DNA of 64,000 bases from Pseudomonadota bacterium (GTDB taxonomy: Bacteria > Desulfobacterota > Desulfobacteria > Desulfobacterales > RPRI01), in NCBI GenBank assembly GCA_043825875.1, contig JBDRRF010000041.1, forward strand, positions 35,888 to 99,887, in the 5' to 3' direction. This document shows positions 1-64,000 of the stretch, one piece after another (positions within the stretch are counted from its first letter, which is position 1; every line of letters begins with the position of its first letter). Made by a program: the position numbers.

Positions 1-3000
1 TGATTTCATTTTGCAAGCAGTTAAAAAACCTCGACTGCGTCTTTTGATCTAAAAAGGAATCTTACTACATTCTTAAGCCACCATTGATACTGTAATCCTG
101 ACCTGTTATCCAATTGGCATCTTCAGAGGCCAGAAAAGCGACCATAGCTGCTATCTCCACCGGCTCTCCAAGCCTCCCTAATGGCACCGCAGATACATAT
201 TTGTCCTGGATACCCGAAAATTTAGCCATAGCCCTAGCAAGTGCCGGAGTATTAACCGGTCCCGGAGAAATACAATTGACAGTAATGCCATCTGCGGCCA
301 ATTCCAGGGCAATCGCCCTTGTGAACCCTGCTACTGCCGCCTTACATCCGGAATAAATAGAATGATAAGCAGTACCATGTTTGCCGGAATCCGATCCTAT
401 ATTGATGATCCTGCCTTTTTTCTGCTCAAGCATTTTGGGGATGACAGCTTTGCAGCACAAAAGGGTACCTATAAATAATATATCGGTTTCCGTTTTCCAT
501 GACACCAGATCAGTTTCATGAAAACGTTTAAAAGAGTAATCATCGGCCTGAGGACCGTGACAGTTGACCAGGATATCCACGCGACCGAATTTGGCAATGC
601 TCTTTTTAACCATCTCACTAACATCATTACTACTGGTTACATCAACTTTAATCGCCAGCGCTTTGCCGCCGGATTTATTTATTTTTTCTGCTCCTTTTTC
701 TGCTTCTTCTTTGTGCACATCCGTCAAAACAACACTGGCGCCTTCTGCAGCCAGCATTGTGGCAATGGCGAGTCCTATGCCCCCGGCCGCCCCTGTGATT
801 ATGGCTACTTTATTTTCAAGTCGCATATTTATTCTCCATTTTAGCTATTACCCCTAAAAGCGGCACTAATATTTCCAGTAGATTTTTAATCTCTTCATTT
901 ATCCCTATATAGTTAAAATGGTTTGCTAAGCAGCTGAAGGTGCTCCACTCTCCAAGCTCATAACAGTCCTGCCCCATTCAACATAGCTCAATATATCCGG
1001 GATTTGAACACTTCGCCCATCAGAAAGAACAACACTTCCGCTGGTTCTCGCATTGAGCCCATAACGCATGTTATAGCCTTTTTTATTTACTACGCAATAT
1101 ATCCCTCTTCCTCCGGAGCCCACAATCATGTCCACACCACCGCCCGTTGATTTCATATTAACATGCCAGCGCACCGGGACTTGCATACCTGTCTCAGGGT
1201 CTGTCCATAATTCCAGTTCATCCATGGTGATCTCATTATGGCTGAAGGGGATCTCCTGGTCATCCACATAAACGCGTCCATAACTGACCCCGGCTTTCGG
1301 CATGCAGAAAAGAAAAATCTGTACAGACCCGCTAAGGCACCATATATATGTATAAGGCTCCCGTATGAGTTCCATGTGATCATAGCTATGCCCAAAGGTC
1401 ATTTGGTCATGAATGCCATAAGCTTTTTCGAGTGTGTATACCTTGCCCTTTACTGTTATTGTGCCTTCGACCCAGCAACGCTGCTCATAACCGGCTCGGG
1501 TGGTTGTAGGTAAGTCGGGCCATAGCCCATAGCAACGGGAAGCATTGCCTATTCCGCCCAGAGTCAAATTACAATCCACTCCAAGATGTTCGCCTTTAGC
1601 CTCCCAATAGGGTGGTCTGGAGATGAACTGTCGGTTGCCGGCCTTCCAGATTATATGGTCAGGTTTTTGAATAATTTGAACTTTGCCTGTCCATTCAGAG
1701 GCATCCAGGCGGTTGCCAACAAAGAAACTATCGTGCATCCTGCCCTGTTTATCCTGGGGAACCATCACTAAAGTAGTCTGGTTCATCATAGCGTCATCGG
1801 CCTTCCATTTCCCGTTCCGCCCTCCTCCGACATGCCACGCGCCAACACCCAAAGCAATGTCATAACCTTCTGACTCTCCCATTACCAGGACACCGTTAAG
1901 CTCCATGAAGTCACTTCCCTGATCCTTAGGCAATTCGGCCACATGACTCAGGTCTTCGCTCAGTTGCACATCGCTCGTTGCTTCTCTTTTTTCCGCCATT
2001 GTTAAGCACTCCTTTTGAATAAAAATATTTAGCAAAAAACTAATTGCAGATAGTTGTAGCTCATCTCTGATGAAAGAGGTTTCCCAATGTATTTAAGAAG
2101 TATAAGTCTTAAGATTAACTTTGACTTATATTTTTTTTATAGTTTTGTATTTGAGGGTGATGCATAGTTGCTATGGATCATAAGCTTAGATCGGGATTGT
2201 ATGGTTATATCTATTGCTTGCTATCATAGGGGTAGCACAGATTTTCTTATCAACAGAATTTACATGCAATGCCCTATGAACTGGATAGTTGAGCATCTCC
2301 TCCGTAAACCGGGTTGCCTTGTAAACCTTGTCTCTCAAAGTATTATTGCCGGAGCGAGGTGTCCGGCAATAATAACTAAATAACGATTTTACTATATTGC
2401 TATTGGCCTGCTTTTACTTCTGTTGGACATTAGGCAAATAGCCCATAAGCTTTACCTGGTCGCCCTCGGTTATGATGGTCATCGAACGTGCGCCAACAAT
2501 GATTGCTTTTTTATCACCCAGAAACTCAAGTCCGCTGAACCAGGCAAGTTTTATATCAATAGAGGTTTCCATTTGCTGCCAGGTTTTTCCACCGTCTTGG
2601 CTAGTCATAATCGCCCCACGGTCTCCTGCTGCAATGCAAAAATCACCCTGCGCTCTAACTTCATAAAACGTTGGCAACTCCCCTTTATCATCAGGTGCTA
2701 TGGTTATTGTTTTCCAGGTTATGCCGCCGTCTTCCGTCCTTAGCACAGTGCCGCCCAAACCTACCACAACCCCTTGCGTCTTCGAAGAAAAAGATATCCC
2801 GAACAAAGTGTTTTCAGTTCCGGACTCCTGAAGACTCCAGGTTTTACCTCCATCCTTAGTGTACAATATTGTGCCGAACTCTCCGGCCACCCAACCCTCT
2901 TCTTCATCATTAAAGACCATGCTGTAAAAAATAACATCCTTTGGATATGTATTGTTCACCCAGGTCTTTCCGCCGTCTTCCGTATAAAAAATTGTTCCCC

Positions 3001-63000: not shown

Positions 63001-64000
63001 CGCACTTGGGCGACTGACGACTGGAAAAGCGGCGAAGTCATCAAGACCGAGGATGCGGTGATCTGGAAGCTGGATAACTGGCAATACATCTGCCGCCCCC
63101 CCTACTGGGAACTCAAGGGTGAGCACATGGGCATTGAATTCGATCTGCTCTTAAGCGGTATTGGTGACGCCTCATTTCACAAAGGAATCTATGCCGATTT
63201 TGCTAAGAACAACGTTGCCGGCTATGAGGCTCCGCTGTGCTGCGAGGGCACCTTCAAAGTTGAAGGCAAGACTTACAAATTGAGGAAAGACAAATCTTTT
63301 GGTTGCCAGGAAAAGTTCACCCAACCGGCGTGGGATCTGGCCAAGGTGCTCAGAGGAGAGACCTACTACTGGATCTGGTGGGCGAACGAATCTGTGCGGA
63401 TCTTCATTTATTATTATCCCTCCGTGGGGAAAGCATATAGCCAAGTGATGGTCGAAGACCAGGAAGTGGACTTTTCCGAAAACGGCACAAGTAATATCAA
63501 GATGGAAGAACTGGAGTATTGGATCGATCCCAAGACGAGAATGCGGATTCCTGTCAAGTGGCACTTTACCTTAAAGTCGGCAAAAGGGGAGATCAATCTT
63601 GATGCATCGGCTGAGTCACGGACTTTTTATGGCTACCTGAGCGAATCCGGTGCCACCATGCATTACGGCCTGCATAGCCATAGTCTGGGCGAAATGAATT
63701 TAGCCGATGGCCGCAAGATTCCGCTTAAGGATATGCGTACTTACATCGAGCATGGCTGGTGTGCAATACCGTTGCCGGCCTTTGCATGTTAAGGCTTTAA
63801 GGCATAAGAGCCGCTGAGCAGATAATTAATAGAATAGTATTACTACGACTTATTTAAATGGAGAATGTAAATGGCAAACAATAAAACTGAAGTTGCAGCA
63901 GATAAAACCGTGCTCTATCCAAAAGCGATAGGCTACATATCCATGGTTGATCCCAAGGAATCGGTTTGTCAGGATTGCAGAAGTTGTGAGCTGTATTGCG

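Follow-up and report, generated by a model that had tools for sequence, protein, structure and literature searches.

Fourteen divergent AttH/CrtC-fold paralogs among oxygen-independent metal enzymes in a sulfate-reducing bacterium

Why would a sulfate-reducing bacterium keep fourteen copies of a protein that family databases do not recognize, several of them set among tungsten and molybdenum enzymes? We examined this question in a 64,000-nucleotide stretch of contig C41 (hereafter the window; coordinates are those of the window unless contig positions are stated) and across the rest of the genome. As the preliminary description had reported, the genome encodes 14 paralogs of 349–358 amino acids, all of them intact, cytoplasmic and free of internal stops. 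Six are on C41, also as described (contig positions 18467, 22751, 33952, 36840, 79354 and 98603), but only three of these, and hence three of the 14 overall, fall inside the window. Pairwise protein identity is 30–94%, rather than the 33–67% first given.

The three window copies belong to two clades. Two are in clade C and on the minus strand: one of 357 amino acids (926..1999), between a BNR/AmeC-like gene and a short-chain dehydrogenase (SDR), and one of 352 amino acids (43455..44513; g01232), whose stop codon lies 8 nucleotides ahead of the likely start of a downstream Mo enzyme. The third, a plus-strand clade B protein of 358 amino acids (62716..63792), is 94% identical to copies on contigs C62 and C115, which are 94% identical to each other. 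The DNA of these three is about 91.5% alike across the gene only, their flanks are unrelated, and each sits about 200 bp or less from a contig end; they are genuine paralogs at which the assembly breaks. Directly upstream of the clade B copy is an AveC_like membrane protein with about five hydrophobic segments (61656..62570, plus strand; PF17198, E 4.2e-15), a pairing also seen on contig C16 and in a congener. Downstream begins a Fer4_11-type ferredoxin gene (63871..64000, plus strand) that is cut by the contig end and is 92.7% like the gene preceding an aldehyde:ferredoxin oxidoreductase (AFOR) on C16.

Standard searches barely detect the family. Lipocalin_9 matches the window copies below threshold (25.3 bits for the copy at 926..1999, and 20.0 and 20.8 for the others, against a cut-off of 26.2), and none of the copies tested reached a Pfam gathering threshold. 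In a family-level table that carries no bit scores, 36 of 78 members match Lipocalin_9 at E<=0.01, with a best E of 4e-6. One copy searched against NCBIfam gave no match at E<=1e-10, and neither a single protein nor the 78-row family profile retrieved any PDB sequence at E<=10. The earlier statement that Pfam and NCBIfam hold no match thus stands within this scope.

Structure and profile comparison nevertheless place the family. A model built from all 14 paralogs (pLDDT 91.9, pTM 0.91), better than the earlier seven-paralog model, predicts two lipocalin-like barrels, the fold of AttH. Its structural matches agree with those listed before: AttH (NE1406, 2ich; E 2.7e-10), kievitone hydratase (7a0t; 3.4e-10) and 25-phosphosteroid lyase (9fzn; 2.5e-9), followed by CghA, Phm7 and Fsa2. 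Aligned by hhalign, the family profile and a profile of 20 canonical CrtC/AttH proteins gave 97.3% probability (E 2.4e-11) over 193–294 columns, and neighbors in the ESM Atlas were clusters of AttH-domain, CrtC and tocopherol-cyclase proteins. The label "orphan" therefore holds at the HMMER level alone, since profile–profile comparison ties the proteins to CrtC/AttH. The family is a remote homolog within the AttH/CrtC/kievitone-hydratase fold group. In the structure comparison, matches to fungal Diels-Alderases are as strong as those to the hydratases, and the reaction cannot be read from the fold.

Several features separate the family from canonical CrtC/AttH proteins (PF07143 plus PF17186). 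The canonical profile retrieves AttH (2ich; 1.4e-87) and the fungal kievitone hydratase (7a0t/7a0q; 1.8e-11) from the PDB, a route that does not find the family, which stays below Pfam thresholds. The canonical consensus starts with a Leu/Ala-rich stretch, whereas the family lacks a hydrophobic N-terminus. Members are also scarce: a profile search of 1.84 billion (1.84e9) proteins yielded 150, 111 and 64 representatives at E<=1e-3, 1e-10 and 1e-30, bearing out the claimed rarity. The family occurs in five of 401 genomes of the order, all from one genus as claimed, compared with PF07143 in 71 of 300 gammaproteobacterial genomes (three of the 71 unpublished). Within that genus it is carried by five of 13 genomes (G000 counted), those of 3.7–5.1 Mb. 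Aerobic marine hydrocarbon degraders also have members, and clade B is shared with aerobic marine gammaproteobacteria. Within the AttH/CrtC/kievitone-hydratase superfamily, the 14 proteins make up a subfamily that is rare, cytoplasmic and divergent.

Conserved residues suggest what this subfamily may do. In CrtC of Rubrivivax gelatinosus, D268, W283 and W285 are described as essential by mutagenesis (PMC4717167, PMC12402844). The canonical motif SWxD...(+15, +17) WxW has the same spacing. In the profile alignment, checked by that spacing, the motif's Asp falls on family position 196, where all 14 paralogs and 66 of 78 members have an acid (E or D) and the other 12 do not. The canonical WxW, and with it W283/W285, aligns with P-Y-Y-[WY], aromatic in the paralogs and variable across the 78. 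Because an acidic residue is kept at the CrtC proton-donor position, it is reasonable to suppose from sequence that the proteins act on hydrophobic substrates as C–O lyases or hydratases, and the preliminary assignment of a C–O lyase/hydratase of the AttH/kievitone-hydratase fold gains support from this residue, the fold and remote homology. As in CrtC, the chemistry would be protonation of an isoprenoid C=C bond. The family differs from CrtC in having a non-aromatic residue at D-2 (H-E in place of Y-x-D), in its cytoplasmic rather than membrane-associated protein and in the lack of carotenoid genes nearby. Its best-conserved residues are W263 (76/78), D265 (77/78) and R296 (78/78). All three are peculiar to the family, with nothing equivalent in canonical hydratases, which means that the catalytic machinery may differ; an anionic group, for instance phosphate or carboxylate, would be a fitting partner for the invariant Arg.

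Genomic context points to catabolism. Family copies are mostly embedded among oxygen-independent metal enzymes, and the neighbor set named in the preliminary description was found again. It includes four AFORs, two upstream of the window and two inside it: a canonical AOR-like tungsten enzyme (19986..22049, minus strand) that matches 1aor over its full length, with a ThiS/MoaD-like gene nearby (18832-19083), and a second (32900..34780, minus strand). Genome-wide, an AFOR lies within about 2.2 kb of four of the 14 copies, where about 0.2 would be expected by our own arithmetic (12 AFOR genes in 4.77 Mb). These AFORs are 27–50% identical to one another and are therefore not recent block copies. 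The set further comprises two Mo-bisPGD enzymes, a CrtI-like protein, many SDRs, two SdhA-like proteins upstream of the window and two OYE/FadH-type proteins, among them an OYE plus Pyr_redox_2 Fe-S flavoenzyme of FadH/BaiCD type (9916..11898, minus strand). CrtI-, KstD- and SdhA-like flavoproteins often adjoin family copies. The minus strand also carries an HdrD-like CCG/Fer4 protein with a xanthine-dehydrogenase (XDH)-type Mo enzyme set of two large subunits, Fer2_2 and FAD components (47529..55184), for which the best NCBIfam model, 4-hydroxybenzoyl-CoA reductase, scores below cut-off, and two HGD-D/BcrBC-type, double-cubane-like subunits (55256..57853), with no activator ATPase gene in the window. 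In congeners, the family gene lies inside HGD-D plus BcrAD sets. The surroundings of four copies, on contigs C110, C97, C109 and C79, are free of catabolic genes.

Two envelope cassettes on the minus strand (2414..9163 and 21914..28583) complete the island. Each combines BNR, MMPL/HAE3-RND, DUF1329 and DUF1302 proteins and lies divergent from an HTH_3 regulator (12115..13719, plus strand, 534 amino acids, and its paralog 29288-30901); a PAS-LuxR regulator and a sigma-54 activator are at 57885..61406 (minus strand). The monoterpene island of Castellaniella defragrans encodes AmeABCD, which consists of a DUF1302 outer-membrane protein, a DUF1329/LolA-like protein, a BNR/COG4447 protein and an HAE3-type RND protein (PMC6394551). 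By family make-up the same four Pfam families are present twice here, likewise within an island of oxygen-independent oxidoreductases. Since the match is to AmeABCD from a bacterium that degrades monoterpenes anaerobically, terpenoids would fit the cassettes at least as well as sterols. The host here differs in being a sulfate reducer with W and Mo enzymes. Linalool dehydratase-isomerase (Ldi) of C. defragrans is a functional analogue of the family, although it has a different fold.

One operon-like string recalls anaerobic cholesterol degradation. Co-directional on the minus strand (35664-47427), it holds, listed by rising coordinate, an APH-family kinase (35664..36725), the only one on C41; several had been claimed, and the whole genome has five matches. 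The best PDB relatives of this kinase are 9fsg (3.3e-41), Rv3168 and the kinase domains of ACAD10/11; from its name and accession neighborhood we would guess that 9fsg is 25-HSK. Next come a type-II-like Mo/W-bisPGD enzyme (36827..39142; VGFGDSA motif, likely start at an internal Met), a CCG-domain (HdrD-like) protein that may serve as an electron-transfer partner (39163..40089; paralog at 15616-16482), and a DapB_N/DAP_DH_C oxidoreductase of the native amine dehydrogenase family (40062..41120). This last is a recurrent neighbor: a homolog adjoins the family gene in five of six gammaproteobacterial loci. A second Mo/W-bisPGD enzyme (41155..43497, likely start 43446), 53% identical to the first, is followed at higher coordinates by the family member, an MFS transporter (44578..45894) and a CrtI/amine-oxidase-like flavoprotein with an N-terminal hydrophobic anchor (45895..47427). 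VG[LF]GD occurs in both Mo enzymes, and by chain index its Asp aligns with the Mo ligands PcrA D170 and EBDH D223, the Asp-ligand motif of type-II enzymes.

This gene content raises the possibility, which we regard as unlikely, that 35664-47427 encodes a clustered cytoplasmic cascade of hydroxylation, phosphorylation and elimination, perhaps with rehydroxylation, modelled on S25DH, 25-HSK, 25-PSL and S26DH of Sterolibacterium denitrificans. A type-II Mo enzyme would use water to hydroxylate a tertiary carbon, the APH kinase would phosphorylate the alcohol, the family member would expel phosphate to leave an alkene and the second Mo enzyme would hydroxylate the allylic carbon. Exactly these enzyme classes are used in the cascade as described in PMC8449060 and PMC11061730, and ACAD10/11 are described as phosphorylating hydroxyacyl-CoAs before phosphate elimination (PMC11342911). 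The arrangement also recurs in three congeners (G184, G322 and G343), where kinase orthologs 86–93% identical adjoin Mo genes. The Mo enzymes, however, come with no beta- or gamma-like subunit genes in the string and no twin-arginine (Tat) motif at their N-termini, score 199 and 194 bits against the EbdA model of NCBIfam (cut-off 2000), and fit perchlorate reductase and acetylene hydratase as well as EBDH. The 25-phosphosteroid lyase (9fzn/9g2i/9g4c) shares the fold, but it is the least similar of the structural matches and was missed by both the family profile (PDB, E<=10) and the canonical profile (PDB, E<=1). A groundwater metagenome contig (run X3) joins position 43452 to 44607, so that a close relative keeps the Mo and MFS genes but not the family gene, and gammaproteobacterial homologs have neither kinase nor Mo neighbors. 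As a general reading of the family, which the preliminary description had proposed, the cascade falters on the 13 of 14 copies that have no kinase nearby; for this one operon it is possible. In the account given in PMC8449060 the lyase gene of S. denitrificans is also not near the kinase, and kinase linkage is therefore not decisive.

Steroid-specific markers did not turn up: KstD-like proteins score far below the NCBIfam cut-off. The covalent-FMN consensus of CtmAB and delta24-SD, given as G-F-L/R-x-N/S-T/L-H-A in PMC11061730, is absent from the three CrtI-like proteins examined, the one at 45895..47427 among them, in which they differ from C. defragrans, and scanning the genome in six frames did not reveal it either. 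In the anaerobic 2,3-seco module for steroid ring A (1-TDH plus SRAH), some Amidohydrolase-2 ring-hydrolase genes lie close to the XDH-type Mo (1-TDH) genes in some degraders (PMC11780191). The XDH-type set of the window, compared with 1-TDH by enzyme type, has no such neighbor: the genome's seven Amidohydro_2 genes include none on C41 or any other family-bearing contig.

Two further readings dispense with hydration or elimination. The proteins could be non-catalytic, lipocalin-like carriers that keep water-insoluble substrates dissolved in the cytoplasm and pass them to the adjoining oxidoreductases, one per substrate or enzyme. The predicted barrels, the variety of adjoining oxidoreductases, the near translational coupling of the 43455 copy to its Mo enzyme and the gene loss tolerated by the X3 operon all suit such a role. 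The strict retention of the charged residues R296 and D265 and the acid at the CrtC catalytic position argue against it, as does the fact that those solved relatives whose function has been described are enzymes, and we consider carriers rather improbable. We give a still smaller chance to pericyclases, cyclases or isomerases of lipid or natural-product modification or biosynthesis, comparable to the fungal decalin Diels-Alderases or tocopherol cyclase and working outside catabolism. Genes for a PKS, NRPS or terpene synthase are missing from the window; what surrounds the family is a set of AFORs, ene-reductases, SDRs, transport cassettes and regulators of the kind typical of degradation islands; and gammaproteobacterial copies lie among beta-oxidation-type genes. 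In Pseudomaricurvus hydrocarbonicus the homolog adjoins a KstD-like flavoprotein, a MaoC hydratase, an SCP2-type thiolase, an ACAD and a CoA ligase; the Zhongshania marina homolog lies beside an MCC/GCC-like carboxylase set.

We slightly favor the view that the family comprises cofactor-free acid/base hydratases, lyases or isomerases acting on isoprenoid-like substrates, a class suggested by fold, homology and neighbors, in a multi-substrate anaerobic catabolic island. E/D196, aided by H195, would protonate a C=C bond or, in reverse, the enzyme would assist the loss of a hydroxyl or similar leaving group from a tertiary or allylic carbon. The carbocation so formed would be stabilized by aromatic residues and go on to water addition, elimination or a double-bond shift. 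Each paralog may handle a separate intermediate or substrate of the oxygen-independent island, among hydrophobic, probably isoprenoid or alicyclic compounds. Products would pass to redox neighbors: divergent tungsten AFOR-like enzymes with Fer4_11 and CCG partners, type-II Mo-bisPGD enzymes, the amine-dehydrogenase-family oxidoreductase and HGD-D/BcrAD-type reductases. Hydroxy-GDGT synthase (Hgs) is similar by description, an AttH-like hydratase that acts on an isoprenoid chain after the desaturase Ted, much as flavoproteins adjoin the family; it differs in being biosynthetic and archaeal, with a B12-radical-SAM partner.

How terpenoids, hopanoids and steroids are degraded without oxygen is understood for only a few denitrifiers, and our literature searches, made with other aims, brought up no sulfate-reducing degrader with a known pathway. 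The family points to an unstudied anaerobic breakdown route for terpene-like compounds. A bolder proposal, for which we see only a slim chance, is a new class of cytoplasmic leaving-group lyases/hydratases that, with beta/gamma-less type-II Mo hydroxylases, the APH-type kinase and divergent tungsten AFOR-like enzymes, moves functional groups along unactivated isoprenoid or alicyclic skeletons (terpenoids, hopanoids, sterane-type) in a strict anaerobe. The cascade by which denitrifiers attack the cholesterol side chain would then have its equivalent in a sulfate reducer, where fourteen paralogs would between them handle many substrates. Cofactor-free regioselective hydratases are described as sought-after biocatalysts (PMC12402844), and the 14 natural variants of this soluble, cytoplasmic branch would make a useful panel. 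Groundwater and coal metagenomes contain close relatives at the DNA level; together with the 14-fold expansion beside W and Mo enzymes, these relatives offer testable candidates for water-based functionalization of inert hydrocarbon skeletons.

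A new, rare, expanded and cytoplasmic branch of the AttH/CrtC superfamily recurs across the source genome and lies at three places in the window, 926-1999(-), 43455-44513(-) and 62716-63792(+). The core observation of the preliminary description, a 14-copy family, holds up well beyond chance once some of its numbers are corrected. Whole-genome search returned 14 intact copies, and choosing homologous start codons gave the claimed lengths of 349–358 aa; pairwise identity, put at 33–67%, measures 30–94%. Among the window ORFs, all-vs-all blastp clusters only one trio (926-2035, 43455-44549 and 62716-63792, 36–54% identity). 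Family N-termini are polar (M-x-K-x-R-E-A-x-S-D-V...) and carry no signal peptide.

Three copies, the window's last gene and those on contigs C62 and C115, share 94% protein identity. Their DNA identity, about 91.5%, is confined to the gene, the flanks being unrelated, and no copy is more than about 200 bp from the end of its contig. Strain variation was rejected, since the similarity does not extend beyond the gene borders and one congener MAG likewise carries two copies of this kind, each on its own contig. We take all three for genuine paralogs at which the assembly broke. The final 150 nt of C41, the window's contig, match the start of a Fer4_11 gene preceding an AFOR (tungsten enzyme) gene on contig C16.

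Out of 1.84 billion proteins, a profile of the 14 copies retrieved 150 representatives with E<=1e-3, of which 64 reach E<=1e-30; a word-index protein search found seven relatives, and the three with a source name are all "hypothetical protein". Within the organism's order, the family occurs in 5 of 401 genomes, all from a single genus (5 of its 13, counting the source genome), the carriers being the larger genomes of that genus (3.7–5.1 Mb vs 2.5–3.2 Mb). A GTDB-wide scan with the 14-row alignment recovered congeners (a Desulfonema limicola MAG, a "Proteobacteria bacterium" MAG and Desulfobacterium sp. N47) as well as aerobic marine Spongiibacteraceae and Cellvibrionaceae (Zhongshania, Spongiibacter, Pseudomaricurvus). 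In a quick maximum-likelihood tree with SH-aLRT support only, all gammaproteobacterial sequences join clade B (SH-aLRT 98), which includes the window's 62716 copy and the C16 copy. The copies of Desulfobacterium sp. N47 (genome G143, loci L032 and L042) appear split, with query ranges 1–62 and 58–351, and 1–45, 47–350 and 65–200; either pseudogenes or frameshifts in the assembly would account for this.

An AF2 model from the 14-row alignment is all-beta (pLDDT 91.9, pTM 0.91) and reproduces the Foldseek matches first reported, to kievitone hydratase, AttH and 25-phosphosteroid lyase (25-PSL). HMMER found no relative of the family among PDB sequences with either a single protein or a 78-row profile, and for the copies with scores shown Pfam gives sub-threshold Lipocalin_9 only (36 of 78 members match it at E<=0.01). 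Our canonical comparison set comprised 20 CrtC/AttH proteins taken from gammaproteobacterial genomes, where PF07143 was found in 71 of 300, a tally that counts three unpublished genomes. hhalign joins the family profile to this 20-row profile with 97.3% probability (E 2.4e-11); significance comes only with the 20-row profile, the value against one canonical AttH-like domain, from contig C15 of the source genome, being 0.2%. The significance against the canonical set places the family, on profile evidence, within the CrtC/AttH superfamily as a remote branch. Searched against the PDB, the canonical profile found AttH (1.4e-87) and kievitone hydratase (1.8e-11) and missed 25-PSL, which is another remote branch; these searches gave no sequence link between it and the family. 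The genome also holds a canonical, isoprenoid-linked superfamily member, since a 731-aa fusion on C15 (L043:790-2985, +) joins a canonical CrtC + Lipocalin_9 (AttH-like) domain to one for polyprenyl synthetase.

The canonical alignment has an invariant S-W-x-D-R-E-W followed by W-x-W 15 and 17 residues on, a spacing identical to that of CrtC D268, W283 and W285, which the mutagenesis passages of PMC4717167 and PMC12402844 describe as essential. hhalign pairs the canonical Asp with family position 196 (numbering of the 43455 copy); all 14 paralogs and 66 of the 78 members have E or D there, with His directly before it in 52 of 78. It also pairs W-x-W with a P-Y-Y-[WY] stretch. The family has near-invariant residues of its own, W263 (76/78), D265 (77/78) and R296 (78/78), and canonical CrtC/AttH proteins differ in having Ser in place of D265. 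These alignments indicate that the family retains the hydratases' acid position and adds its own invariant Asp-Arg pair. On balance we lean towards cofactor-free enzymes that catalyse hydration, dehydration, isomerisation or elimination on tertiary or allylic carbons of isoprenoid-like compounds, as part of a catabolic island that works without oxygen; less probably, the proteins would be carriers or pericyclases.

The source genome (4.77 Mb in 118 contigs, 99.8% complete) includes the window as C41:35888-99887. The minus strand carries 38 of the 42 genes accepted as real, and the four plus-strand genes are two regulators, an AveC_like gene and the last family copy. Pfam bears out the gene list originally drawn up: two DUF1302-DUF1329-MMPL-BNR cassettes (2414-9163 and 21914-28583), one OYE/FadH-type flavoenzyme, five SDRs, two AFORs (19986-22049 and 32900-34780), an APH kinase (35664-36725), two DMSO-reductase-type (Mo-bisPGD) enzymes (36827-39142 and 41155-43497) that flank a CCG protein and a DapB/DAP_DH_C oxidoreductase, an MFS transporter, a CrtI-like flavoprotein, an HdrD-like protein, a xanthine-dehydrogenase-type Mo set, two HGD-D subunits, regulators and an AveC_like membrane protein. 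No enzyme of the window reaches an NCBIfam equivalog cut-off; each is a divergent paralog of a known family. Both envelope cassettes have the four-gene make-up of AmeABCD in the monoterpene island of Castellaniella defragrans, whose growth on monoterpenes requires ameB; the nearest RND pumps of characterised function transport hopanoids (PMC6394551). A search for sigma-54 promoters (TGGCAC-N5-TTGC, one mismatch allowed) found 5 matches where 4.99 would be expected, and no match stood convincingly 5' of an operon. Beside the AOR-like AFOR lies a gene for an 83-aa ThiS/MoaD-like protein ending in Gly-Gly (18832-19083, minus strand), probably part of tungsten-cofactor supply.

AFOR genes lie within about 2.2 kb of 4 of the 14 family copies, in the orders AFOR-CCG-family, CCG-Fer4_11-AFOR-family, AFOR-family and AveC_like-family-CrtI_like-Fer4_11-AFOR. 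The genome encodes 12 AFORs, so chance alone should give about 0.2 such adjacencies, by rough arithmetic on copies that are not independent. These AFORs (L016:5966-8038 and L016:2582-4528, upstream of the window on C41; L019:6409-8403; L020:7607-9580) share only 27–50% identity. In the one examined, the N-terminal domain alone aligns well with solved AFORs and the C-terminal half is divergent; the window's 19986-22049 AFOR aligns full-length with Pyrococcus AOR. Possibly the family-adjacent enzymes are W/Mo AFOR-like enzymes of a new functional group. AveC_like lies directly upstream of two of the 14 copies, one copy lies 5' of DUF1302-DUF1329 and another 5' of a Tat-signal KstD/flavocytochrome-like flavoprotein; four have a non-catabolic context. 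In congeners, a family gene also occurs within HGD-D, HGD-D, family, HGD-D, BcrAD-ATPase sets. Twin-arginine starts (SRRKFFK and SRREFLK) mark an SdhA-like flavoprotein upstream of the window (L016:10497-12491) and the KstD/flavocytochrome-like protein on C62 (L017:1387-3111), so that both, unlike the family proteins, are probably periplasmic. A second SdhA-like flavoprotein lies at L016:13252-15168.

The preliminary description had proposed a sterol-type cascade of hydroxylation, phosphorylation and elimination. It could apply at most to a single gene string, running from 47427 down to 35664 (CrtI-like, MFS, family, Mo, DapB-like, CCG, Mo, APH), the sole place where a kinase accompanies a family gene; the genome has five APH matches, one of them on C41. 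The APH-Mo-Mo order is kept in three congeners, which are close kin. Passages of PMC8449060 and PMC11061730 describe the denitrifier cascade as two Mo hydroxylases, a kinase and a lyase, with the lyase gene unlinked to the kinase gene. Among solved structures the window kinase is closest to 9fsg (3.3e-41), named an "aminoglycoside phosphotransferase-like protein", and after it to Rv3168 and the ACAD10/11 kinase domains. Both Mo enzymes contain VG[LF]GD, with the Asp aligned to perchlorate reductase index 170 and ethylbenzene dehydrogenase (EBDH) index 223, which we take to be Mo ligands. PcrA, acetylene hydratase and EBDH match them about equally well, and neither Mo enzyme has a Tat motif or beta/gamma subunit genes alongside. 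Their N-terminal Cys pattern is odd (C-x7-C ... C-x7-C or CC; usually CxxCxxxC). Both genes likely start at internal Met codons, because congener matches begin at residue 15–16 and stop codons are reported inside the matched stretch.

Against such a cascade, no kinase lies near the other 13 copies, neither a kinase nor a Mo enzyme lies near the gammaproteobacterial homologs, and 25-PSL has the lowest structural score within the fold group. Steroid-specific markers were not found: the CtmAB/delta24-SD flavin motif is absent from the three CrtI-like proteins examined and from a six-frame genome scan, and no Amidohydro_2 (SRAH-like) gene adjoins the xanthine-dehydrogenase-type set. A further point against it is that the family gene of the string is itself variable. 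In a relative from groundwater run X3, a 255-nt-anchored contig joint connects 43452 to 44607, with exactly the 43455-44513 gene missing and 40 other letters in its place, whereas a relative in coal-metagenome run X4, at roughly 400x, keeps it; the gene is a presence/absence polymorphism inside the operon. A sterol-type kinase-lyase cascade is a live but minority reading, improbable and confined to one operon. No RNA run is listed as matching 35664-45600, and two metatranscriptome runs each gave only a 34-nt piece against 32900-52800, which is neutral on expression. Between AFOR and kinase, a 628-nt stretch (34763-35390) is missing from close relatives in both X3 and X4; it contains a 142-aa SnoaL_2/NTF2-like ORF (34825-35253, minus strand; sub-threshold, E 1.7e-5).

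In five of six gammaproteobacterial loci the divergent partners of the family gene are a LysR regulator and a homolog of the DapB-like gene seen in the window; in the sixth a DapB-like gene is about 7 kb off. The closest solved relatives of the DapB-like protein are native amine dehydrogenases. Other neighbours there include patatin, esterase, Amidohydro_2, SDR and SCP2-thiolase genes, together with KstD-like, MaoC, ACAD, CoA-ligase and ECH genes in one genome and an MCC/GCC-like carboxylase set in another. DNA 5' of the family gene in these marine bacteria is variable and mobile (L037:6354-9635, L039:5886-6638), encoding a TOTE conflict-system protein, a HigB toxin and an integrase, which puts the family gene at the edge of a variable region.
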